Origin: an uncultured Actinomycetes bacterium
Lineage (GTDB): Bacteria > Actinomycetota > Coriobacteriia > Anaerosomatales > PHET01
Assembly (NCBI GenBank): GCA_947085035.1
Contig: CAMTUW010000003.1
Location: 27-64,026 of the forward strand
Direction of reading: 5' to 3'
Length of the DNA stretch: 64,000 nt
Each line of letters opens with the position of its first letter. Position 1 is the first letter of the stretch. The translations under genes were made by a program, and so were the position numbers. The notes under the pieces were generated by a model. The model was not told where the DNA came from. It ran no database searches and worked only from the letters and a program-made list of their open reading frames with translations. Positions 213 through 40,664 of the stretch are shown here, piece after piece.

Positions 213-1250
213 CTACCACACCTCCATCAACGCGGAGATGATGGCGCCGTTCTCGGCAGGTGAACGGATGCCTGTCCGGATCCAGCGCGCGGACAACCCC
301 GGAAACGTCGAGGCGTCTCGCACGGCGATACCTCGAGCGAGAAGATCCGCGCACAGCCGGGCGGCGGTGCGCTGGGCTGGCAGCTCGGCGAGGACCCACG
401 GAGCCACGCCCTGGGTGACGCGCACACCGGGCAGCGCGGCGACGGCGGCGGACATGCGCGCGCGCTCCGTGCACAGCAGGGCACGCGAGCGAGCCAGGTA
501 CTCGTCTTGTGCCGCGAGTTCGACCGCGGCCTCGGCGGCGATGCCGTTCACGCTCCAGGGATCGCGCATCCGGGAGATGCGCGCTACCAGCGGCTGGGCG
601 GCAGCGAGCAGGCCCAGGCGCAGCCCCGGTACACAGAACGTCTTCGTGAGCGAAGCGACGACGCTGATGCGATCGCCCACGTGTGATAGGAGCGAATGGG
701 CCGGCTCGCTGGACAGCGCGAGGAACGACTCGTCGACCAGCACGTGCGCACCCCGGGCGGCGAACGCGAGCAGCGACTCCGGCTCGACGAAGTGTCCGGT
801 GGGGTTGTTGGGCTGGCCCACGATCACGAGGTCGCCCTCGCAGAGCTTCTCGCCACCTTCCCACGCGAGAAGTTCGTCGCACGGCGTCTTCCACTCGTCG
901 CGGGAGAGCACGAGCGGCACCGAGACGCTCGGGACCCCTGCGGCTCGCGCTGCGGCGACGTACTCGGAGTAGCAAGGATCGAACACGATGACCCGGCGCG
1001 GCGCCACGGCACGAACGGTGAGGGAGATGAGCTCGCTCGCACCGTTGCCCACGAGAAGGCTCTCCACCGAGACGCCCAGCCGGTCCGCCCACGCCTCCCG
1101 CGCACTGAGCGCGTCGACCTCGGGGTAGCGGGCCGCGAGTTCGCGCGCACGCCGAAACACAGCGTCAAGCGAGGGCGGCGGCCCCATCGGGTTGACGTTG
1201 ACGCTGGCGTCGATGCGCGCCTGGGGGTCTCCCCCGTGATCGCGCCTCAT
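213..1250 (-). CDS. cobD: L-threonine-O-3-phosphate decarboxylase (class I/II aminotransferase fold, CobD/CobC type)
   Basis: ORF 213..1433 carries NPMGPP...LLVGNGASELI...GQPNNPTGHF...LVDESF aminotransferase-fold motifs. I trimmed the start to the ATG at 1250, which forms an ATGA overlap with the cobQ stop; upstream of it the frame is Arg/Pro-rich junk. Confidence 0.85.
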   Translation of the reverse strand: MRRDHGGDPQARIDASVNVNPMGPPPSLDAVFRRARELAARYPEVDALSAREAWADRLGVSVESLLVGNGASELISLTVRAVAPRRVIVFDPCYSEYVAAARAAGVPSVSVPLVLSRDEWKTPCDELLAWEGGEKLCEGDLVIVGQPNNPTGHFVEPESLLAFAARGAHVLVDESFLALSSEPAHSLLSHVGDRISVVASLTKTFCVPGLRLGLLAAAQPLVARISRMRDPWSVNGIAAEAAVELAAQDEYLARSRALLCTERARMSAAVAALPGVRVTQGVAPWVLAELPAQRTAARLCADLLARGIAVRDASTFPGLSARWIRTGIRSPAENGAIISALMEVW

Positions 1251-2821
1251 CGAGCGGCCTTCGAGGCCGCAGCGTCGCGCCCGAGCCCCGCGATGCGCGC
1301 GACAGCGTCGAGGTCGAGGTGCGCCTCGAGCATGTCCGCGAGACGGTCGGCCGGGTCTGTGGCGACATGCGGGCGCACCCCGGGGCCGTACAACGGCTCC
1401 AGGCCCTTGGCGGCGCGCAGTCGATCGAGCCACGCGCGACGTAGCGCGAAGTCGTCGAAGAGCCCGTGGAGGTAGGTGCCGCAGACCGGCTTCGAGCGCG
1501 ACTCGGCGCCCTCGTCGCCGAACGTTTCACCGGCCCCAGCGACCCGCGCGAACGGCGCCGCATCGGGGCCCCGAGTGGTGCGGCCCATGTGGATCTCGTA
1601 GCCGCTGACCGCAGATCCTGCCGGTCCGAGCTGCTCGCCGGAAAGCTCACCGCTCACGCGGACCGTGCGCTTCTCGGCGGCGAACACGGTGACGGTATCG
1701 AGCAGGCCGAGACCCTCGAGGATCGCTCCCGGCTCCCCTTCCACGCCGAGGGGATCTTCGACGCGAGCACCCAGCATCTGGAATCCGCCGCAGATGCCGA
1801 GAACCGGCGTTCCTGCGCGAGCAGCCGCCACGATGGCGTGGGCCAGCCCGCTGCTTCGCAGCCACGCGAGGCCGGAGATCGTGGACTTGGTACCGGGAAT
1901 CACCACGGCATCGGCTCCGTCGAGGTCACCGGGCGTCCGGGCCCAGCGGACCGACACGTCCGGCTCGAAGGAAAGCGAGGCCAGGTCGGTGAAGTTGGAG
2001 ATGTAGGGCAGGCGCACGGCAGCAACGGTGAGCGGTGCCCCGGGCTTCTCGGCGATGGTCTCGATACCGAGCGAGTCCTCCTCGTCACCACGCCAGTCAT
2101 CGAGATAGGGAAGCACCCCGAGCACCGGCACGCCGTAGCGCTGCTCGAGCATCTCGACGCCGGGGGCAAGCAGCGTGGCGTCGCCTCGGAAGCGGTTGAT
2201 GACGAAGCCGGCCACGAGCGCGCGCTCTTCGGGGGCGAGGAGCTCCATCGTGCCCACGAGCGCGGCGAAGACGCCGCCGCGATCGATGTCTGCGACGATG
2301 ATGACCGGCGCGTGCGCGTGGAGCGCGACCGCCATGTTGGCGATGTCTCGATGGCGGATGTTGATCTCGGCGGGGCTGCCCGCGCCCTCGATGATGACGA
2401 GGTCGCGGCCGTGTCGCAGACGTGCGAGCGCGTCGGTGACCTGCGGCCAGACGCGTGGCTGGTAGGCGTGGTACTCGCGCACCTGCATCACGCCCACCGG
2501 CGCGCCCAGTACGATGACCTGACTCCCCGTGGGCGAGCAGGGCTTGAGCAGCACGGGATTCATGTCGGCGTGCGGCTCGATGCCTGCGGCGTGCGCTTGG
2601 AACGCCTGCGCACGACCGATCTCGGCGCCTTCAGGGGTGACCGCCGAGTTGAGCGCCATGTTCTGGCTCTTGAAGGGGGCTACGTCCAGGCCGCGCCGGG
2701 CGAACACGCGCGCGAGCCCCGCCACGAGCACCGACTTTCCCGCGCTCGAGGTGGCGCCCTGGATCATGAGTACGCGCGCGGCGGCAGCGTCGCCAGTGGG
2801 CGGCTTCGAGGGCGTCGCCAC
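1247..2821 (-). CDS. cobQ: cobyric acid synthase
   Basis: 524 aa. It has an N-terminal P-loop-like IQGATSSAGKSVLVAGL and a C-terminal glutamine amidotransferase region (ICGGFQMLG, YEIHMG). GTG start overlaps the upstream stop by 1 nt. Confidence 0.93.
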   Translation of the reverse strand: MATPSKPPTGDAAAARVLMIQGATSSAGKSVLVAGLARVFARRGLDVAPFKSQNMALNSAVTPEGAEIGRAQAFQAHAAGIEPHADMNPVLLKPCSPTGSQVIVLGAPVGVMQVREYHAYQPRVWPQVTDALARLRHGRDLVIIEGAGSPAEINIRHRDIANMAVALHAHAPVIIVADIDRGGVFAALVGTMELLAPEERALVAGFVINRFRGDATLLAPGVEMLEQRYGVPVLGVLPYLDDWRGDEEDSLGIETIAEKPGAPLTVAAVRLPYISNFTDLASLSFEPDVSVRWARTPGDLDGADAVVIPGTKSTISGLAWLRSSGLAHAIVAAARAGTPVLGICGGFQMLGARVEDPLGVEGEPGAILEGLGLLDTVTVFAAEKRTVRVSGELSGEQLGPAGSAVSGYEIHMGRTTRGPDAAPFARVAGAGETFGDEGAESRSKPVCGTYLHGLFDDFALRRAWLDRLRAAKGLEPLYGPGVRPHVATDPADRLADMLEAHLDLDAVARIAGLGRDAAASKAAR

Positions 2822-4185
2822 TAGAACTCGACCCCCCGCCGAGCTGGGACGCCGCGCGCGAACGGGTGGCTGATCGGATGCATCTCGGTCACGTAATCGG
2901 CCATGGCGAGGAGCTGGTCCGGGGCGCCTCTACCGGTGAGAATGACTTCGACGTGGCCCGCCCGCTCGCTGATCGCGGCAACAAGATCGGCGGTGTCCAC
3001 GAGCCGCTTGGCGGCGGCGACGCACGCCTCGTCGAGCACGACGAGGTCGAACGCACCCGACAGCGCCGCGCGCGCGGCGGCCAGCGCGTCTGCGGCGGCC
3101 GCGCGATCGGCTGGGGTCGCGGCGCCTCGCATGAGGCCGCTGGAGCGCTCGGCCGGACGCGTGACCGCCACGCCCAGACGTCTGAGCACCGCGAGCTCGC
3201 TCGATTCGGGTCCGCCCTTGACGAACTGCACGAACGCGACGCGTTTGCCCGCACCCACCGCGCGCACGGCCAGTCCCACAGACGCGGTCGTCTTGCCCTT
3301 GCCGCTGCCGGTGTAGACGTGGACGAGCCCCGGGTGCGGCTCCGGCGGCGCGAGCGAGACGTCGCTCGTCTGCAGCGATGAGTCGAGCCCCGCTATCTCG
3401 CGCAGACGCGCCACGACCTCGGCGTTGGAGCGCACGGCGTCGTGGGCCGCCTCGGATGGGCGCGCGACGACAAAGGCCGTGGCCGATGCGAGCCGCGCGG
3501 CTTCGAGCTTGGCGTCCACGCCGCCTGCGGTGCCGCTGTCCTTCGTGACGAGCACCGACGCGCCGAGGTGGCGCAGAAGCGCCGCATCAAGCTCGGCCGA
3601 GGTGGGGCCCTGCATCGCGATCACGTCGGCGGGCGACAGGCCGGCCTCCTCGCACGCAGCGAGCGACCCGGCCACCGGCAACACGCGCGCGACGCACCGA
3701 ACGCCTGCGGCGCGACAGGCCGCCGCGTACACCGCGAGCGAGCGCGAGCCCACCGTGAGCAGCACCGTGCCGCCCGGACCGACCGCTTGGACCGCAGCGC
3801 GCGCAGCGTCTTCGGGCGACTCGCAGAGCACGGCGCCTTCGGTGGAGAGCGCGCCCTCGCGCTCGAAGCGCACGTACGCGGTACCGGCGAGGCGAGCGGC
3901 CTCGCGAGCGGTCTCGCTCGCGAGACGCGCGAAGGGGTGCGAGGCGTCGACGACCGCGACGCGGCCCGTGGCGAGTGCGGCCATTCCGGCGGCGTCGAGC
4001 GCCCCGAAACGCACGGCGCTGGCGTCGCAGGCTGCGAGCTGCTCGCCGTATGCGGTTGCGGTGCTCACGAGCACCTCGAAGCCGGCCTCCTTGAGCGCGC
4101 GGGCGATCTCGCGCGAATCGCTGGTGCCGCCGATGAGCAGCACGCGTGGCGCCTCGTGCCCGGGAGCGTGGGTTGGTGCGCTCAT
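2821..4185 (-). CDS. cbiJ/cobO: fusion protein: precorrin-6x reductase (CbiJ/CobK) N-terminal + cob(I)yrinic acid a,c-diamide adenosyltransferase (CobO/BtuR type) C-terminal
   Basis: The N-terminal ~265 aa (VLLIGGTSDSREIARAL...) is CbiJ-like. The C-terminal ~170 aa (VHVYTGSGKGKTTASVGLAVRA...FVKGG...LVVLDE...ILTGRGAP) is CobO-like with a P-loop. It is a single uninterrupted 454-aa frame. Confidence 0.85.
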   Translation of the reverse strand: MSAPTHAPGHEAPRVLLIGGTSDSREIARALKEAGFEVLVSTATAYGEQLAACDASAVRFGALDAAGMAALATGRVAVVDASHPFARLASETAREAARLAGTAYVRFEREGALSTEGAVLCESPEDAARAAVQAVGPGGTVLLTVGSRSLAVYAAACRAAGVRCVARVLPVAGSLAACEEAGLSPADVIAMQGPTSAELDAALLRHLGASVLVTKDSGTAGGVDAKLEAARLASATAFVVARPSEAAHDAVRSNAEVVARLREIAGLDSSLQTSDVSLAPPEPHPGLVHVYTGSGKGKTTASVGLAVRAVGAGKRVAFVQFVKGGPESSELAVLRRLGVAVTRPAERSSGLMRGAATPADRAAAADALAAARAALSGAFDLVVLDEACVAAAKRLVDTADLVAAISERAGHVEVILTGRGAPDQLLAMADYVTEMHPISHPFARGVPARRGVEF

Positions 4186-4994: not shown

Positions 4995-5680
4995 ACCGCT
5001 GCAACTCCCGTCACTTCCTCGGCGAACGTGGGCTCGCGCAGCGCGTCTTGCAACGCCTTGATGCGCGAGCGAGGCACGACGCGCAGTACCACGCCGAGCT
5101 CGTCGGCGGCCGCGCGGATGCCCGGCTCGCCCGCTTTCAGGTCTATCGTCGCGAGCGCGCGCACGTCAGCACGGGTTCGTGCGGTCGCTTCGAGCGCTTC
5201 GTCGATGGCGGCGAGCACGGCCTCGCACGACACGCCGCGCCGACTCCCCACTCCCACCACGACGCCCCTGCCGGCCTCGGTACCGGTGGTGACCACGGGC
5301 ACGGCGCCGGTGAACTGGGCGATGTCCTCGCACAGCGCGTTGGCGCCGCCCTCGTGTCCCGACAGCAGCGAGATCGCGAAGCGGCCGGCGTCATCGACAA
5401 CGACCACTGCCGGATCGTCGTACTTGCTCGCCACCCACGGCGCGATCGAGCGCACCGCGATGCCGGACGCCATCACGAAGACGATCCCCGCGCATCTCTC
5501 CCACAGCTCGCCCACATGCTCGACGAGCGACCCCTCCCAGACGCGCGCGCCCGGATGCAGTCCCTCGCGAGAGAGCGTGAGCTCGGCTTCGGGCAACAGC
5601 CCGGCGAGACGCGCGGCAAGCGCGGCCCCTTCCTCGGACACAGCGATCAGCGCGACCGGACCACGACGCTCGAACCTCAA
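4859..5680 (-). CDS. cbiG: cobalt-precorrin-5A hydrolase
   Basis: 273 aa with FVMASGIAVRSIAP...DDPAVVVVDDAGRFAISLLSGHEGGAN (CbiG N/C domains). TTG start in a TTGA overlap with the cbiF stop. Confidence 0.88.
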   Translation of the reverse strand: MRFERRGPVALIAVSEEGAALAARLAGLLPEAELTLSREGLHPGARVWEGSLVEHVGELWERCAGIVFVMASGIAVRSIAPWVASKYDDPAVVVVDDAGRFAISLLSGHEGGANALCEDIAQFTGAVPVVTTGTEAGRGVVVGVGSRRGVSCEAVLAAIDEALEATARTRADVRALATIDLKAGEPGIRAAADELGVVLRVVPRSRIKALQDALREPTFAEEVTGVAAVCVPAALMSDPHAMLIAQIARDGVTVAIAQDDCFSSASVPAPPRT

Positions 5681-6465
5681 CTCTGCACCTCCTCTTCGCA
5701 GGCGTCCCGGTACCCGTGGGCGAACGCCGGGTCGTAGAGGTGGCTGCGACGGCCCTCGGCGCCCGCGAGCGCGGGGCCCACGAGGATCATCGCGGTGCGG
5801 TCGATCCCCGAATCGGCGAGCGCGCCCTCAAGCGTGCCCACCGTGGCGCGCACGACGCGTTGCTCGGGCCACGACGCGCGCTGCACGATCGCGACCGGCG
5901 TGTCAGCCGGGTAGTGCGCGCCCAGGTCGGCGGCCACTCGGTCACCCATTCCCGCCGAGAGGAACACCGCCATCGTGGCGCGGTGGCTGGCAAGCGATGC
6001 GAGGTCTTGGCCCTCGGGCACCGGCGTGCGTCCAGCCGCGCGGCAGATGATGACCGTCTGCGAGACCCCCGGCACGGTGAGCTCGACGGGGAGAGCGGCG
6101 GCGGCGGCGAACAGCGAGCTCACGCCAGGAACCACCTCGTAAGGCACGCCCTCCTCGGCGAGGCGCTCCCACTGCTCGGCCGTGGCGCCGAACAGCGAGG
6201 GGTCGCCGGTGTGGAGGCGCACCACGCGTGCGCCGTCGCGGTACCCCGCCACCATCGCCGCGACCTGCTCGTCGAGCGAGAGCCCCGCCGAATCGATGAT
6301 CACGGCCCCCTCGCGCACCCACGCGAGCACCGCCTCGGGCACGAGCGAGCCGGCCCACAGCACCACGTCGGCGGCCTCGAGCACACGCATGCCGCGCACC
6401 GTGATGAGCTCGGGGTCGCCGGGACCGGCGCCCACGAACACGACGGGATGTCCCGACGATGTCAT
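5677..6465 (-). CDS. cbiF: cobalt-precorrin-4 / precorrin-4 C11-methyltransferase
   Basis: VVFVGAGPGDPELITVRG...RLHTGDPSLFG motifs. Start trimmed to the ATG at 6465 (ATGA overlap with the cbiL stop); the ORF-track N-terminal extension is Arg/Gly junk. Confidence 0.9.
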   Translation of the reverse strand: MTSSGHPVVFVGAGPGDPELITVRGMRVLEAADVVLWAGSLVPEAVLAWVREGAVIIDSAGLSLDEQVAAMVAGYRDGARVVRLHTGDPSLFGATAEQWERLAEEGVPYEVVPGVSSLFAAAAALPVELTVPGVSQTVIICRAAGRTPVPEGQDLASLASHRATMAVFLSAGMGDRVAADLGAHYPADTPVAIVQRASWPEQRVVRATVGTLEGALADSGIDRTAMILVGPALAGAEGRRSHLYDPAFAHGYRDACEEEVQS

Positions 6466-29124: not shown

Positions 29125-29961
29125 CTAGCGCGAGCTGCTGGTCGCGAGTCCCGAGTCCATCATCTCGATCAAGTCGCACATCACCGAGAAGGCGTACTGT
29201 CGAAACTGCTCATCGTTCATGCCAGTGTAAGCCGTCAGAGGCCTCTGATTCAGGAGAGCGTCCACGCCCGCAGAGTCCGCGCAATCGAAGATCACAGCGA
29301 TGCTCTTTCGGGACTTCCTGAACCAAGCAGATTTCTGCGCGGCGAGCCGGACAAGCTCGGCTGCAATCAACCCTCGCCACTCCGGGAACGTATCAAGCAC
29401 GAAGAAGATGTAGTAGAGGTCCTTCTCCTTCTTGAGACGATCCCTGCGTTTCACAAACACCAGGGACTTGTGGAAGATGAAGGCACCGGGATTTGGTACG
29501 CGTACTGCGTAGCCGACCTCGCCATCCGTCAGCTCACCAAGATCGACGATCCAGGGATCCACAAGCATCAGCCCAACGTAGTGAAGCTCCTGAGCAGTGA
29601 GCCCCGATTGCACTGTGACCACTCCCTGCCTTGCCCCCGGAGCGTCGGTGATGAACTCAATCTCAATCTCTTGGCCGTCATCAACCGCCGAATACTTTGT
29701 CACCGGCGGCTTTGTGACCGAGGTGTACCGACACTCGAATTCGGCCGCGACGAGCATCTGATCGATGCTCGCGCCCCTGACTGGCACGGAGCGCGGAACG
29801 GCGAGGTCTATGTCCCGTGTACGGGGGGATCGCCCGGTGTTTGTGGCGTCGTATAGCAGTTCGTAAAGGTGAGGCACCCATCCGCCAGCGACCACCACCA
29901 CATCCAGATACGGCTCTATCGCTGACAGCCCTCTCGTAAGTACAGAATCTACGCCAATCAC
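29125..29961 (-). CDS. nucleotidyltransferase-fold protein (AbiEii / GSU2403-like), putative toxin/effector
   Basis: 278 aa. VVVAGGWVPHLY-x19-RTRDIDLAV fits the NTase G[GS]...DxD pattern used by AbiEii/DUF1814-type proteins. GTG start in a GTGA overlap with the upstream gene. Visibly lower GC than its neighbours. Confidence 0.55.
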   Translation of the reverse strand: MIGVDSVLTRGLSAIEPYLDVVVVAGGWVPHLYELLYDATNTGRSPRTRDIDLAVPRSVPVRGASIDQMLVAAEFECRYTSVTKPPVTKYSAVDDGQEIEIEFITDAPGARQGVVTVQSGLTAQELHYVGLMLVDPWIVDLGELTDGEVGYAVRVPNPGAFIFHKSLVFVKRRDRLKKEKDLYYIFFVLDTFPEWRGLIAAELVRLAAQKSAWFRKSRKSIAVIFDCADSAGVDALLNQRPLTAYTGMNDEQFRQYAFSVMCDLIEMMDSGLATSSSR

Positions 29962-31052
29962 AACTGATCCTCCTTTTCGATCATCGGGCGAATCCGACGA
30001 TCGAAGAGATGTTCGGCTTGTTCCCGCCCACGGACGGGATAGTCGTAGAGATCCAGATAGAGCTGGATGTCGGAAGCCACCCTGATTGGCCCGCTCTGCA
30101 TCTGTGCGTCGTAGAACGCTGACTCACGGTAGTACGGCCGTGACAGGTTGATGTTGCCACCACGCTCGACGCGACGTGCGTCCATCTCAAAGAGAGCAGC
30201 CTGCGCAGATTCGATGTTCCTCACGTAGACATCGACGACGTCGAAGTCAGCATGACGATCAACAATGCTCGCGCCAGCGTGTCCTGTGAACACATAGTCA
30301 ACGCCCTGGGCGCTGAATGAATTCGCGATCTCGGGCATCAAGGCCTCCGCACTCGATCTCGCAAGGAAGTAGCTCCTCGAGACCGGCTGCCGTCTCTGAC
30401 GATAGGAGACCAGCCAGTCGTTGAGCAGTTCGCTGACATGCCGGAGCACGATTCCGTCATCCAGTTTCGCTGCATAGCCTTGGCGCTTCAGCTCCTTGAC
30501 AATCTTCGAGACGAAGCCTGGGCTCAGCTTGATCTGCTCATCTCCGGAGCTCACGATGTCGGCAATCTGGCGGACTCCAATCGGAGACCGCGCACCTAGC
30601 AATATCCGCAACACGAGCGATGCCTTGTCAGAGAACAGATTTCGCTGCTCGCGCTCCTCTTTGTCCGGATTGCTGAACCCTCGTCGGTCAACGTGGACTC
30701 CGGGTGCCAGCAGCCATGCATTGCCGGCGTAGTCGATAAACGCCGCCCGTGCATCACGTAGGACCCTCTGCTTCGAGGTACTGAAGAATGGCGCGGCCAA
30801 CACCGGAATCGAGTCTCGTGCATCGTCTTGCGGGAGGTTCATCATCGCCAGAGCGTCGAGCAGTTGCGCGTTACCGGCACTCTTGAGAAGTTCTATCCGC
30901 AGGTGCAGTTGACCAGCGGAGGAGCGTACATCTGCCCATGCCGCTGGCGCATGCCCTCGTGACTGGACTGGCCGAAGTTCGAGAGAGCTGTCAGGAAAGA
31001 GTTCCCGAAGCGCGCGCGCGAGTTCTGAGTAGTCGCCTTCTCCAGCAGCCAT
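29958..31052 (-). CDS. wHTH regulator with AbiEi-like C-terminal domain, putative antitoxin/regulator
   Basis: 364 aa. It has a central wHTH-like segment (VRQIADIVSS...LSPGFVSKIVKELKRQGY) and a C-terminal ...RVASDIQLYLDLYDYPVRGREQAEHL, reminiscent of the AbiEi antitoxin C-terminus. An extra ~130-aa N-terminal domain is present. GGAGGA RBS before ATG 31052. Confidence 0.5.
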   Translation of the reverse strand: MAAGEGDYSELARALRELFPDSSLELRPVQSRGHAPAAWADVRSSAGQLHLRIELLKSAGNAQLLDALAMMNLPQDDARDSIPVLAAPFFSTSKQRVLRDARAAFIDYAGNAWLLAPGVHVDRRGFSNPDKEEREQRNLFSDKASLVLRILLGARSPIGVRQIADIVSSGDEQIKLSPGFVSKIVKELKRQGYAAKLDDGIVLRHVSELLNDWLVSYRQRRQPVSRSYFLARSSAEALMPEIANSFSAQGVDYVFTGHAGASIVDRHADFDVVDVYVRNIESAQAALFEMDARRVERGGNINLSRPYYRESAFYDAQMQSGPIRVASDIQLYLDLYDYPVRGREQAEHLFDRRIRPMIEKEDQL

Positions 31053-35737: not shown

Positions 35738-36046
35738 TCACGGGCGGCTCACTGGCGTCACCAGTCGCCGAATCACGAGCACGTCGAGCACCGCCGCGAT
35801 CAACAGCAACGGGATGGAAAGAACGATCAGTCCCGCGAACGACGTGAGGTCCTCCCATGTGTCCGCAGCACCTAGGTAATTGAAGTAGATCCACCAGCCA
35901 GCAAACCCTGCGACCACGAGCCCCTTCAACGCCAACGCGACTACGGGCAAACGGCCCGCGACCTTCCTGCGCAGAGCAAGCACGTCAACGGCAATCGTGG
36001 CGATCGCGATCAGCCCGAGTCCCCAGAACGCGTATACCCACGCCAT
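35738..36046 (-). CDS. small membrane protein (3 predicted TM helices)
   Basis: Start trimmed to MAWVYAFWGLGLIAIATIAV... The call rests on hydrophobic segments only. Confidence 0.4.
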   Translation of the reverse strand: MAWVYAFWGLGLIAIATIAVDVLALRRKVAGRLPVVALALKGLVVAGFAGWWIYFNYLGAADTWEDLTSFAGLIVLSIPLLLIAAVLDVLVIRRLVTPVSRP

Positions 36047-36201
36047 GCCATCCTCCGCTTTCGCTGTCGACAATAGGCCTTGGTCTTGTTCTCCTCTTCG
36101 AGCAGAGGATCGATCTCTCGTCACGCCTCTCCACAGTACATCTGTAACCGTCACGAATTCCTCGCAGACTATCGCACCAGTTCGTCAACAGGGCATGGCC
36201 C

Positions 36202-37065
36202 TCAGATCGCGAGGTCTAGCGGAAGGTCCGAGATGTCCTTGAGGCGGTCGCCGTCGACCATGATCGCGAGCATGTCAGCAGCATCCTGCATCCCTAGTGC
36301 GCTCACCGTTTCCTGCAGCTCATAAAGCGCGAAATGGTACACGCAGTCGACATCGCCAGTGCCGAGGGCAATCGATGCGAGTCGGCTGGGCGTGGGCTCC
36401 GCCGTCACCACGACCACGTGAGGCAGACGCCCTTTACGGTTGCGAACCAGATTCAAGGCCTCTGACCTCGCGTTCTGTGCTCGGTCGCTACGAATCGTCC
36501 ATTTGCACGAGATACTAGCGTGTAGCAACGGCAGCCCGCCATTCCTGAGTCTCAGGCTGGCGAGCGTCGCCACACTGCCATCGACCAACACCTCTGGCGT
36601 ATTGATCGCGTCGTCATCCTCGGGTTCCCGCGCGATGACGACGTCCGGCGTGATCGTATAGTCGCTTCCGAGGGCTGCAGCGAGTTCAGGGTCATTCTTC
36701 GCGGCCCGGTCGAGAGCAACCAGATGCGAATACTGTTCGTAGCGCGCGATCTCAAGTCGATTGCGCCCCCGGACATGCTGGACGTCCCACTTGCCGGGTC
36801 GCAGATGCCCGAGCTTCAAGAATGTCTCCCGCACGAAGTCAGCACACGCGATCTCGAACTGATTGCCCGAGGTCTGACCGGCAGAACGTTCGCCGACGGT
36901 TTCCGCCTTGAGGAGGTCAGCTATGCCCCTAGCCAACCTGATACTTGGTTGATTAGTGCCGTCACAGTTGCTGGGCCGACCCTGGGAGTCGATGGTCAAG
37001 CACGACTGAAGCAGGGCATTATGGAAGGCTCTGCGCGCCTCTACGAATTCGACGGGTCCGTGCAT
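36202..37065 (-). CDS. type II restriction endonuclease, NgoMIV / CCGG-family
   Basis: ISCKWTIRSDRAQN contains the S-x-K catalytic motif and the R-S-D-R CCGG-recognition motif described for NgoMIV (S185/K187, R191/D193/R194). An upstream ITPDVV Asp and downstream SEALNL Glu are plausible D140/E201 equivalents. ATG shares 1 nt with the methylase stop. Confidence 0.8.
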   Translation of the reverse strand: MHGPVEFVEARRAFHNALLQSCLTIDSQGRPSNCDGTNQPSIRLARGIADLLKAETVGERSAGQTSGNQFEIACADFVRETFLKLGHLRPGKWDVQHVRGRNRLEIARYEQYSHLVALDRAAKNDPELAAALGSDYTITPDVVIAREPEDDDAINTPEVLVDGSVATLASLRLRNGGLPLLHASISCKWTIRSDRAQNARSEALNLVRNRKGRLPHVVVVTAEPTPSRLASIALGTGDVDCVYHFALYELQETVSALGMQDAADMLAIMVDGDRLKDISDLPLDLAI

Positions 37066-38018
37066 CAGGCGACCCTGAAACTACGTCTGGCGGAAAGTGC
37101 GGTGACTATCTGCCTAGCAACAGCCTCCGCGACCGGCGCAGGAAAAGCGTTCCCGATCTGCCTGTACGTGGCTGTCTTGCGACCGGCGAACTGCCAATGA
37201 TCAGGGAATCCTTGGATGCGTGCGGTCATTCGCGTGGTAAGCCGGGGCATACCCACGAAATCGGGATCAGGGGCGGCATCCCAAAGTCCGCGACCGTCGA
37301 CGCTCAGGGACTCCCACGCGCGGCGGGCACGAGTGGGACCCAGGTCTGGCCCGCCATGCTTCTTCGATCCACCGACGAGTGTCGGCGCAATAGCGTCGGC
37401 GCGCTCCCGCCAATCATCAACTGAACGCCAGCCGTTCGCGCCCATGAGGTCGTGCAGAAGCACACCCACCGTGGCAGGTTCTACTGAATGAGGTAACGGC
37501 CACTCGAAATGGTCCGCGACGTCTTTCCTCATTCCGACGAAGATGACTCTGGGCCGCAACTGAGAAACGCCGTAGTCGGATGCATTGAGCAAGCGCCAGC
37601 TGGGGACATAGCCAAGATCCCTCAGTTGTTTCTCGACCTTGTTGCGGTAGTCGTCAAAGAGGGCATCCAGGAGTCCGCGAACGTTTTCGAGCATCACGGC
37701 GCGAGGACGGATTTCGTCGACCAACCGAATGGCCTCGGGGAACATGTCTCGTTCATCGCTGGCGCCGAGCTGCTTGCCAGCTTTCGAGAACGGGGGACAC
37801 GGAACACCCCCGGCCAACAGATCGATGCCCTTGTACGGAGCGCCGCAAAACTCGCGCAGATCGCCCTCTATCACGTTCCACTCGGGCCGGTTCAGCCGAA
37901 GGGTTTCACACGCTACAGGCTCAATCTCAACAAGAGCCGAGTGAGCAAAGCCGGCCAGCTCCAAACCCAACGCTTGGCCACCCGCTCCAGAGCAGATTTC
38001 AACCGAGTTGAAGTCCAA
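37065..38018 (-). CDS. DNA (cytosine-5)-methyltransferase
   Basis: Motif I EICSGAGGQALGL, motif IV GGVPCPPFS, motif VI ENVRGL, motif VIII QLRPRVIFVG and motif X YRQIGNAFPAPVA. TTG start preceded by an AAGGGGAG RBS. Confidence 0.9.
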   Translation of the reverse strand: MDFNSVEICSGAGGQALGLELAGFAHSALVEIEPVACETLRLNRPEWNVIEGDLREFCGAPYKGIDLLAGGVPCPPFSKAGKQLGASDERDMFPEAIRLVDEIRPRAVMLENVRGLLDALFDDYRNKVEKQLRDLGYVPSWRLLNASDYGVSQLRPRVIFVGMRKDVADHFEWPLPHSVEPATVGVLLHDLMGANGWRSVDDWRERADAIAPTLVGGSKKHGGPDLGPTRARRAWESLSVDGRGLWDAAPDPDFVGMPRLTTRMTARIQGFPDHWQFAGRKTATYRQIGNAFPAPVAEAVARQIVTALSARRSFRVA

Positions 38019-38125
38019 CTAGTGCTCTCCCCTTAGTCGCAGTACAGGTAGACAACTGCACCCGGATAGTAGCAGGATTCCGGTTTTCTCCCGCCACGAA
38101 TCGACATTCTCCGAAGCCAGTATAT

Positions 38126-38139
38126 ACGAACACATGTTC
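38126..38139. promoter_or_regulatory. LexA/SOS box of the Gram-positive (Cheo box) type: CGAACACATGTTCG
   Basis: It is a perfect match to CGAAC-N4-GTTCG, ~108 nt upstream of the methylase start. On the minus strand it sits between TAGCAA and TATACT (17-nt spacing), a plausible -35/-10 pair. Confidence 0.6.
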
Positions 38140-38277
38140 GTTTGCTAGACCCGTTCACCGCGCTCGTCCATCAATTCGAGGTTGAGCCGTACTCCGTCCG
38201 GGAGCGACCGAGTTCCGCCTCCCACCACGCCCGGAGCGACGAACAACTGATGCTCATCCCATCCGCGAAGCGAGACG

Positions 38278-38727
38278 TCAGCTCACGGCTCTCCTGATGA
38301 GCCTGGCGATCTCTTCTTCCACGGTGGATGTCAGTTCTTTGAGCGCGAAGGAGGTCGGCCACATGTCGCCTTCGTCCAGGTTCGCGGCATCGCTGAACCC
38401 GAGAGTCGAGTATCTGAACTTGAACTTGCTCGCGATTTGGAAGAAGCACACGACTTTGCCGTTGAGTGCGTATGCGGGCATACCGTACCAAGTCTTCGGC
38501 GTCAGCTCCGGCGCGCTGGCCTTGACGATCTCGTGAAGCCGCAAGGCCATCTGCCGGTCCGGCTCAGGCATCTCAGCGATCTTTGCGAGCACATCGTCTT
38601 CCCCGTCATGCTTCGAACGCGCACCGCTCCGTACTTCTGCCTTGAGCTCTTGCGTGCGCTCCTTCATCGCGGCTCGTTCTTCGGCCGAGAATCCCTCGGA
38701 TTTCCGCGCTTCCTTCTCCGGACTCAT
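38278..38727 (-). CDS. DUF1801 (YdhG-like) domain protein
   Basis: Start trimmed to MSPEKEARK... [34 protein letters not shown] is typical of DUF1801. Confidence 0.65.
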
Positions 38728-38776
38728 GTGACGCTCCCTTTCACTAGACGGTCCATCGTGCACCTCGGGGATTCGA

Positions 38777-39589
38777 TCACGACGACGGAGGTGCGTCCTG
38801 AGTCTGCGCAGCACCCCAACTCGAAACGGTCGAGCTACGAGCCTCTTCGAGGTGGTAGGCGGCGCGCCCGTACATGCCGAAGTAGTACGAATTCGCCAAA
38901 CCCAGATAGAGCCCAAGCGCCATCGCGAACACGATGTAGCCGAAGTAGCCAACAACTCCCAGGACAAGGATGGCGATTGCCTTCAGTTCCGACGAACCAG
39001 GAAGCAACACGATCAACAGGCCGAACGAGCCGAAATACAGGATCATCGCCGCAAGCGATATGCCCATGTTGAGTGAGGTGAATCCCCACGCCCTCATCAG
39101 CTTGGGCTTCTGTGCCTTCATCAGGCGCCAGATCTCTTTGAACTGGAAACCCGACTCGAACGTCCCGTAGAGCGCCACACGCAAGATCGTTGAGGAAGTG
39201 AAGGGGATGATCAGCACTGTCAACGTCATGACCACGAACAACGAAATCCCGGTGACCACTGCCATGCGCACCCATACCGTCGCTGGATCAAAATCTCCCA
39301 GCAGGCCGCCCATCAATGGCACCGCCATCATCATTGGAGTGAGAAATAGGCTCAGCACGACGGAGTACGGGAGGACGGCGACCGTGGCCTTGAGTCCCGC
39401 CAGTGCCTGCCCGGAGAAGTCAGACCAACCGGGTATTCGCCCGTCATCACCCCAGGCGACGTTGCGCTGGTACTCCATCTGCCAGCCGATCATCCACACC
39501 GTGCCGACATACGGGATAAGGGTGATGAGTACTCCGAGGCCGAGCTTGCGCTTCCACTGAGGATCCTTTCGGATGGCGGAGAATGCCAT
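38777..39589 (-). CDS. DUF4013 family membrane protein
   Basis: Start trimmed to [44 protein letters not shown] (DUF4013 N-terminal signature), followed by 5-6 TM helices. Confidence 0.65.
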
Positions 39590-39745
39590 TCTATAGTCGA
39601 CCACAAAACCCTCCTTCTTGACTGTCGCGTCATCGGTGCCGCTGTCGCCCGACTCTCGATCCAATGATGCGCGTAACCCGCAAGGCGCTCCAAGCGCCTG
39701 CAACCCGAGGATGGAAGTCAGTGGGGACCGCTTGTCAGCCAGACA

Positions 39746-40252
39746 TCACTGCCTGGGCATCCACCGTGTCTTCCAGAGTCCGTCGACCTTGTGAACCGGC
39801 CACCACTCACCAGGCTCATCGACGGTGACGGGACGAATTGCGCTGCTCGGCGGGTTTGTCGTGACGGCGTAGACGACACGGACCCACGCCGCATCGCTGG
39901 CGGTGACCCTGACCTCAAGGATACGGAAGTCCAGATAGGTTTCGCGCGCCTCGGCCCACTCACGCGCCGCAGTCGCATAGTCCATCGACGGAGAAGCGTA
40001 GGAGGAGTAGGCCGTCTGCCATGCCGTCTTGTTCAGAGCGTCGACAAGCGCGAGAACGGCCTCGCCAGGCAACTGTCCGGCTGCATCAGCACGCTCAAGC
40101 AACGGATCATCCTGAGGCAGATCCGCTCCGAGAGATGTCTCCTCACTCGGAGCACTGGTCGAATCCATGTTCTCAGCAGGCGTCGGTACTACGCTTGAGG
40201 TGCACCCGATCAACATCAACATGACCACGCACAACGCGATCCCGAGTCGCAT
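39746..40252 (-). CDS. lipoprotein, function unknown
   Basis: Start trimmed to MRLGIALCVVMLMLIGC (lipobox). The mature part is acidic with no recognised motif. Confidence 0.5.
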   Translation of the reverse strand: MRLGIALCVVMLMLIGCTSSVVPTPAENMDSTSAPSEETSLGADLPQDDPLLERADAAGQLPGEAVLALVDALNKTAWQTAYSSYASPSMDYATAAREWAEARETYLDFRILEVRVTASDAAWVRVVYAVTTNPPSSAIRPVTVDEPGEWWPVHKVDGLWKTRWMPRQ

Positions 40253-40462
40253 CGTTCCCCCAGTTCTGTCGAACGTCTGTGGCATGGCCCGCAAGCCGCA
40301 GCCGTGCCGGTTCCTACTCAGACTACCGCCCCTGCCGCGGTTTGTCAGTGCAGCGACTCCGGCAACCGCAGGCTGATGCTGCCGTCTCAGCCGGCGTCCT
40401 TGTGCAAGATGTCGTCGATGCTCTTGAATCCGCGCACTGCCGATCCCCAGCTCAGAATCACA

Positions 40463-40489
40463 GAAGCCCCTCCAGAATGGAGAGGCTTC
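40463..40489 (-). terminator. hairpin terminator downstream of tRNA-Phe
   Basis: The minus strand reads GAAGCCTCTCCA-TTC-TGGAGGGGCTTC (one G-U pair at the 7th position of the stem) followed by TGTGATTCTG. Confidence 0.5.
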
Positions 40490-40501
40490 CGACGTTTTCG
40501 A

Positions 40502-40577
40502 TGGTGGCCAGAGAGGGACTTGAACCCCCGGCACGGGGATTTTCAGTCCCCTGCTCTACCACCTGAGCTACCTGGCC
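40502..40577 (-). tRNA. tRNA-Phe (anticodon GAA)
   Basis: The minus strand reads GGCCAGGTAGCTCAGGTGGTAGAGCAGGGGACTGAAAATCCCCGTGCCGGGGGTTCAAGTCCCTCTCTGGCCACCA, a canonical cloverleaf with encoded CCA. Confidence 0.92.
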
Positions 40578-40664
40578 GTTTCGCGTGCCCACGTATGTTA
40601 GCGACGAGGGTGTTACGCGTCAAACAACGCGCCCGCGCGAAAGCCGCGCGAAAGTCCGCATCCG

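Follow-up and report, generated by a model that had tools for sequence, protein, structure and literature searches.

An NgoMIV-type restriction-modification cassette in an actinobacterial chromosome

The window analysed here, by which we mean the whole stretch of 64 kb of DNA, is chromosomal, with mfd, enolase, pyruvate kinase, cobalamin genes and a P-type ATPase, and has a GC content of 65.6%. Its minus strand encodes a C5 cytosine DNA methyltransferase (M) followed by a restriction endonuclease (R), whose coordinates are given in Table 1 together with those of the upstream elements. Both proteins are full length, with PF00145 covering residues 3-305 of M (profile positions 1-323 of 324) and PF09015 matching R over positions 1-275 of 275, and their genes are adjacent and co-oriented, which makes them a type II restriction-modification (R-M) system of the NgoMIV family. 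The translational linkage of the two genes claimed in the original prediction was borne out, as they overlap in CTGATG, where the TGA stop codon shares one base with the ATG start codon.

When compared with the NgoMIV R-M system of N. gonorrhoeae, M is 69% identical over 309 residues and R matches PF09015 from end to end, whereas the upstream regulatory region is unrelated, and the LexA-box module described below is restricted to a single clade of the M tree. Based on its similarity to the NgoMIV system, the specificity of M is most likely GCCGGC. Homologs of M are extremely widespread across phyla, with 75-90% identity between M and its cassette relatives, and Coriobacteriia MAGs are the named members of its 90%-identity cluster, which makes an uncultured bacterium of the Coriobacteriia (Actinomycetota) the very probable host. 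An NCBI record of M holds a 269-aa version of the protein; the 317-aa version adopted here, which begins at a TTG codon, is supported by Pfam coverage from residue 3 onwards and by a conserved Shine-Dalgarno sequence.

Upstream of M, on the same strand, lies a gene for a DUF1801 protein (38278..38727), followed by one for a DUF4013 membrane protein. The GC content dips to 0.57-0.62 over 35.8-40.6 kb (35800-40600), against 0.65-0.68 on either side, and since this dip also covers the DUF1801, DUF4013 and 262-aa ORFs, the acquired region may exceed the 1.95-kb cassette. About 5 kb from the R-M genes, at 29125-31052 on the minus strand and adjoining mfd, is an AbiEi_2 / NTP_transf_8 (AbiEii) toxin-antitoxin pair, located in a stretch of 57-60% GC, and this pair forms a small defence island with the R-M genes. 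The position after R, occupied by vsr (PF03852) in most relatives, is taken in the window by a 102-aa ORF. Nothing resembling vsr was found anywhere in the window, so that this C5-methylating cassette lacks a cognate T:G mismatch endonuclease nearby. One relative, a Coriobacteriia MAG (L094, positions 2388-3260; NCBI GCA_054640275.1), lacks a called R gene between M and vsr, although the NgoMIV-type gene is intact at that place in its sister contigs L093, L095 and L096; the gene could be a pseudogene in L094, or there could be a gap in assembly or annotation.

Table 1. Coordinates of the M-R genes and of the elements upstream of them, as positions in the window.
Feature	Position	Strand	Remarks
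C5 cytosine DNA methyltransferase (M), 317 aa, TTG start	37065..38018	-	PF00145, E=8e-69
NgoMIV-family restriction endonuclease (R), 287 aa	36202..37065	-	PF09015, E=1e-121
102-aa ORF, 3' of R	35738-36046	-	No Pfam match
Shine-Dalgarno-like AAGGGGAG, upstream of the TTG start	38027..38034	-	Conserved in L093
TGCTACTAT, extended -10-like element of putative promoter P2	38066..38074	-	Conserved in relatives; probably LexA-independent
TATACT, predicted -10 hexamer of putative promoter P1	38119..38124	-	TAYnnT at the same offset in 11/11 cassettes
LexA-type (Cheo/actinobacterial SOS) box CGAACACATGTTCG	38127..38140	-	Minus-strand reading CGAACATGTGTTCG
TAGCAA, predicted -35-like hexamer of putative promoter P1	38142..38147	-	Relatives there: GTGACA/TGACAA/TGTCAA

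A LexA-type box within a predicted promoter of M

The region upstream of M contains a palindrome of the form CGAAC-N4-GTTCG (in the context ...GCCAGTATATACGAACACATGTTCGTTTGCTAGACC...), which is the single perfect occurrence of this pattern in the window. The original prediction had recognised the palindrome as perfect, which it is, with coordinates one base off (38126..38139), and had placed it about 108 nt from the start of M, which agrees with the gap of exactly 108 nt that separates it from the TTG codon at 38016-38018. Taken by itself, this match is not significant: 0.20 perfect boxes are expected per window, and at least one was obtained in 19 of 100 dinucleotide shuffles, so that the case for the box is made by comparison with relatives. 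The window has a second GAAC-N4-GTTC, at position 1801, inside a CobQ-like ORF (1247..2929). Sites with one mismatch to CGAAC-N4-GTTCG number 13 (e.g. 20037, 30002 and 43781), against a shuffle mean of 5.2 and above every one of the 100 shuffles. At least two of these sites lie inside ORFs, namely, 30002, in the AbiEi coding region, and 43781, and most of the 13 have GC-rich spacers; this excess may be an effect of codon usage, which the shuffle model does not contain.

Read on the minus strand, TAGCAA and TATACT are separated by a 17-nt spacer, which is filled by the box; both hexamers and the spacer length agree with those originally proposed. The box thus overlaps the core elements of a predicted promoter that would read into M, referred to here as P1. 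A scan of 37900-38400 with a strict sigma-70 consensus and for terminators returned neither promoter nor terminator, the former because TAGCAA matches the consensus at only three of its six positions, and a search of the same interval against Rfam gave a sub-threshold chance match only.

The box and its -10 hexamer are conserved in related cassettes

For comparison we used 80 genome loci, nine viral loci and nine places retrieved by look-ups of exact proteins. Between the window and its Actinomycetota relatives, alignable DNA is confined to the coding sequences of M and R (window 36200-38019, 70-75% identity). No flanking gene is common to the window and these relatives, whose neighbours include HEPN_AbiU2/DUF5677, a sigma factor, an acetyltransferase/PASTA pair and Dabb/TfoX. 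The box is nevertheless present in 11 cassettes from Actinomycetota/Coriobacteriia, the window included. It is perfect in nine (window, L004, L005, L023, L031, L034, L098, L099 and L100) and one base off in the other two, namely, L093 (AGAACAAGTGTTCG), whose M is more than 90% identical to that of the window and which is its closest relative, and L097 (CAAACATACGTTCG). The distance from the end of the box to the start of M ranges from 77 to 109 nt, and all box-carrying hosts have a GC content of 58-68%.

Anchoring these 11 sequences on the box gives 1.91 bits per column for its arms and 1.08 for the N4 spacer (consensus CGAACAc.TGTTCG), against 0.25 in the 33 columns upstream and 0.56 downstream. 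Adjacent to the box, a TAYnnT hexamer (TATACT, TATGCT, TATAAT, TACAAT and similar) is found at a fixed +3..+8, that is, after a gap of 2 nt, in all 11 cassettes, and in several of them GTGACA or TGACAA abuts the opposite side. A perfect GAAC-N4-GTTC within 250 nt upstream of M occurs in seven of nine Actinomycetota loci, against 0.024 expected, and in none of 62 loci from Beta-, Gammaproteobacteria and others. Among 96 loci (~0.9 Mb) perfect 14-mers are found at this position only, the sole exception being a copy in L021 that lies about 1 kb away from M. This phylogenetic footprint is strong, and it shows that selection acts on the box and the -10 hexamer as components of the mobile M-R cassette.

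In the M tree the box loci form one clade, with the box-less L013 and L049 nested inside it, a pattern most simply explained if the box was acquired once, then maintained for long and lost occasionally. The box is dispensable, since these two clade members lack it, as does L048, a Coriobacteriia locus that is more distant. The window and L093 are homologous from about the -35 position through the leader, so that the mobile unit has its upstream edge at the box-containing promoter. The nine relatives of M on viral contigs all lack the box and are of proteobacterial type, and the 16 matches to M in a plasmid collection are essentially all from Proteobacteria, with no close actinobacterial copy among them.

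The box matches the LexA operator of Actinobacteria

The claim that the box corresponds to the LexA operator consensus of Gram-positive bacteria and Actinobacteria is upheld by published motifs. The consensus of M. tuberculosis LexA is TCGAAC(N4)GTTCGA, described there as similar to that of B. subtilis (PMC3381160), and that of C. glutamicum is TcGAAmAnnTGTtCGA (PMC5014011). The core of the box is exact, and 14 of the 16 positions of the C. glutamicum consensus are matched. The two remaining positions, the outer T...A of the 16-mer, are absent from all 11 cassettes, which have A, G or C on the 5' flank and T or C on the 3' flank; the latter is constrained by the adjoining -10 hexamer. SOS boxes of S. 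venezuelae also vary at the outer positions, for instance CCGAACGCATGTGT, which is without the outer T...A, and this pair is an auxiliary rather than a defining feature of LexA operators.

With the operators in the recA, lexA and dnaE2 promoters of Actinobacteria and other Gram-positives, the box shares the CGAAC-N4-GTTCG core, the A..T preference in the spacer and the overlap with core promoter elements. It differs from them in its unmatched outer T/A and in its target, which is a mobile defence cassette and not a repair gene. The box is confined to hosts that are expected to use the CGAAC-N4-GTTCG motif. Searches with E. coli and B. subtilis LexA (approximate sequences) found no LexA-like ORF in the window or in the fetched loci, and no signature motifs of lexA, recA or uvr, nor any other SOS gene, were found in the window. 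The assignment to LexA is drawn from the consensus match and from taxonomy. Conservation strongly backs the reading of the box as a LexA operator, and LexA is probably not the only control.

A proximal promoter-like element shared with box-less cassettes

About 50 nt downstream of the box, between it and M, lies a further element, TGCTACTAT, which fits the pattern of an extended -10 promoter (TGnTAnnnT) and which we refer to as P2. The pattern TG[CA]TA[GC][TC]AT is found at -43..-65 from M in 13 loci, and 9-mers of this type were recorded in the window and in L004, L005, L013, L048, L051, L053, L093 and L097-L100, with variants such as TGCTAGTAT in L004, L005 and L100, and TGCTACCAT in L098. 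The 9-mer is thus kept from Actinomycetota to Pseudomonas (L051 and L053), while the non-coding DNA around it does not align, and it is also present in two of the box-less loci, L013 and L048. P2 may serve the cassette as a core promoter with a broad host range. We infer that it is the ancestral one, to which the actinobacterial clade would have added the LexA-gated P1 upstream. Because LexA bound at P1 would sit upstream of P2, the latter should be LexA-independent, and since P2 also occurs in box-less copies, LexA probably gates an add-on promoter and not all expression. With P2 downstream of the box, the effect of LexA on total M-R expression may be modest only.

The controller question

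As stated in the original prediction, a gene for a C protein is missing: none of the small intergenic ORFs (51, 41 and 44 aa) matches a Pfam family, nor does the 102-aa ORF that follows R, and M has no N-terminal extension. We also considered a hidden controller or a leader peptide and rejected both, as the leader ORFs have no Pfam match and a 24-aa ORF picked out by eye in the window is absent from L093. The further proposal that LexA substitutes for the usual timing control of R-M systems holds only in part. It agrees with the lack of a controller gene; P2, however, would make LexA the modulator of an extra promoter, and neither the sole control nor a timing device.

R-M systems with C proteins (PvuII, BamHI, Esp1396I, Csp231I; e.g. 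PMC6765115) resemble the box cassette in having a repressor-type operator in the promoter of the R-M operon, which in both cases presumably limits or times expression. They differ in that the regulator of the box cassette would be a global repressor of the host and not a cassette-encoded HTH protein; moreover, gene order apart, there is no sign in the box cassette that R lags behind M.

Other relatives carry something else in the ~200 nt directly upstream of M. A conserved ORF of ~70 aa, which abuts M and ends 2 nt before its start, is found in 21 of the 80 loci, from Proteobacteria and from Thermomicrobium L006 (L006-L020, L028, L032, L033, L036, L043, L044, L046 and L047). Its product follows the pattern VGLRIRIEKELRE.FQ.AC.AENR.ASEVLREFM..., has no Pfam match and, by eye, the look of a ribbon-helix-helix protein, which makes it a candidate for an uncharacterised, cassette-encoded R-M controller. 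Its presence in relatives fits the idea of LexA standing in for a cassette controller.

A model for SOS-responsive expression and its alternatives

From these sequence comparisons, we consider it likely that a LexA operator occludes the spacer of P1, that basal M-R expression comes from P2, and that P1 provides a boost induced by the SOS response. The 14-bp palindrome would be the operator of the host SOS repressor, LexA, within a sigma-A-type promoter (TAGCAA, 17 nt, TATACT), and P1 with this operator would stand at the upstream edge of a mobile M-R cassette of about 1.95 kb. In undamaged cells, LexA bound in the spacer would block RNA polymerase at P1, and the operon would be transcribed at a basal level from the proximal extended -10 promoter. 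When RecA filaments form, be it after DNA damage, during phage replication or at breaks caused by self-restriction, LexA would cleave itself, and P1 would add transcription of M and, through the overlapping stop and start codons, expression of R.

The alternative that fares best, which we nonetheless regard as unlikely, is that LexA binds the box with a negligible effect on M and R, expression being set by P2, and the distal P1 being weak or vestigial. This would be in keeping with the retention of TGCTACTAT and TGCTAGTAT downstream of the box and in box-less cassettes, with the fact that L013, L048 and L049 manage without the box, and with ChIP-seq of M. tuberculosis, where LexA is bound at some sites with no apparent regulation (PMC3381160). 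It is at odds with the pairing of box and -10 hexamer at a fixed gap of 2 nt in 11 of 11 cassettes whose surrounding DNA has diverged beyond alignment, which argues for selection on a working repressible promoter, and with the analogous cglIM of C. glutamicum, which rises strongly on ciprofloxacin (PMC5055667).

Less probable still is that the palindrome only looks like a LexA site and is the operator of another protein, either a host factor or M or R acting on their own genes. In favour of such a look-alike, the LexA motif of the host is assumed from the consensus, and the outer T...A is never present. Yet the match of the arms to the LexA consensus is exact, and the spacer shows the A..T preference of corynebacterial sites; no regulator is encoded in the cassette, and M is without an HTH extension; GCCGGC, the presumed recognition site, is unrelated to the box; and the box does not occur beyond hosts in which this LexA motif is expected.

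We give little credence to the palindrome being a recombination boundary of the mobile cassette, that is, an insertion or recombination site or a hairpin, instead of an operator. The end of the window-L093 homology, just upstream of the box at about the -35 position, is what such a boundary would produce, but in ten loci there is no second copy or partner repeat downstream of R (or vsr), only scattered matches with two mismatches, no recombinase travels with the cassette, and the fixed spacing between palindrome and -10 hexamer is as expected for an operator in a promoter. Finally, a functionless chance occurrence, for which the perfect matches in shuffles of the window could be invoked, is effectively refuted by the comparative data, namely, the excess of perfect cores at the same place in the Actinomycetota loci and the finding of the box in four further cassettes fetched later.

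Host-type LexA-like boxes upstream of M in other phyla

LexA-like boxes also occur upstream of M in a few loci outside the Actinomycetota. First, an E. coli-type SOS box, TACTGTATGCTTAAACAGTT, lies 38 nt before M in the Comamonadaceae locus L077 (~5525-5544); it is conserved in L101, where it is also perfect (~728), and in L102, both of which share the context of L077, and boxes of this type with one mismatch are found upstream of M in L069, L074 and L106. These E. coli-type boxes lie 37-92 nt before the M homolog, whose partner is an HNH nuclease and not an NgoMIV-type enzyme. Second, a Sphingomonas MAG (L079) has GAACATTAAGAGAAC, which conforms to the alphaproteobacterial LexA motif GAAC-N7-GAAC, at ~5959-5973, 42 nt before M; it is part of a TTGACG...TAATCT promoter that has ssb on one side and an M-NaeI-type pair on the other. 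Third, a Candidatus Paceibacterota MAG (L040) has AGAACGAACGTTCT, a perfect GAAC-N4-GTTC, at ~2103-2116, 75 nt before M.

Perfect matches outside the Actinomycetota amount to 1 in 62 loci against 0.16 expected, 1 in 7 against 0.046 and 1 in 1 against 0.002, with two off-diagonal matches of the alpha type against 0.41 expected, and these box statistics are only suggestive. It is no more than a tentative proposal, which we think more doubtful than not, that cassettes with GCCGGC-type M have repeatedly captured the LexA operator of their current host, and that DNA damage is a convergent, general input to R-M systems. If this were true, the SOS repressor of the host would replace a controller encoded by the cassette.

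Discussion

Textbook control of type II R-M systems is encoded by the cassette, in the form of C proteins, autoregulation by the methyltransferase or antisense RNA. A lead from elsewhere is given by the ydiO-ydiP genes of B. subtilis (BsuM methylases), which may be LexA-regulated, and a precedent by the cgl system of C. glutamicum, located in prophage CGP3, the endonucleases of which are of a family different from NgoMIV. Like the cassette of the window, cglIM-cglIR(-cglIIR) is a type II system of an actinobacterium in which the gene for the C5-methyltransferase leads. Its genes cglIM and cglIR belong to the LexA regulon according to Jochmann et al. 2009, as cited in PMC5055667, and they are drug-induced, with M-values upon ciprofloxacin of 3.41 for cglIM and 1.38 for cglIR, compared with 3.86 for recA (PMC5055667). 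The operon of the window can be placed beside these genes, being an M-first actinobacterial R-M operon with an SOS box in its predicted promoter. The view expressed in the original prediction, that SOS-coupled expression of a restriction enzyme would be unusual, is correct in that such coupling is uncommon, and has to be qualified by this precedent. Among the papers searched in full text, none presents LexA boxes as a general means of controlling R-M systems.

The wiring of selfish or defence modules to the DNA-damage signal of the host is known from other elements. LexA control on mobile elements has been described for SOS-induced toxins such as symE (PMC1891008) and for the switch of phage GIL01 (PMC4551915), and WYL regulators link DNA damage to defence systems and islands (PMC9122601, PMC12392091). 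The box cassette is like them in this wiring. It is unlike them in what is wired, as those cases concern toxins, lysogeny switches or a WYL regulator of the system's own, whereas here a classical type II R-M system is predicted to use the LexA of the host directly.

Based on the features of its upstream region, the R-M system of the window is probably turned up by the SOS response, a trait that would be uncommon and would have one precedent. That a mobile cassette keeps an operator for a host repressor through extensive divergence suggests that coupling methylation and restriction to the SOS response is selectively useful. The benefit may lie in extra methyltransferase when repair and recombination make unmethylated DNA, which would be a transcriptional analogue of restriction alleviation; in a stronger defence when phage or prophage activity triggers the SOS response; or in a low cost in unstressed cells. 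What had been a single entry in a regulon list of C. glutamicum would in this way become a comparative pattern across cassettes.
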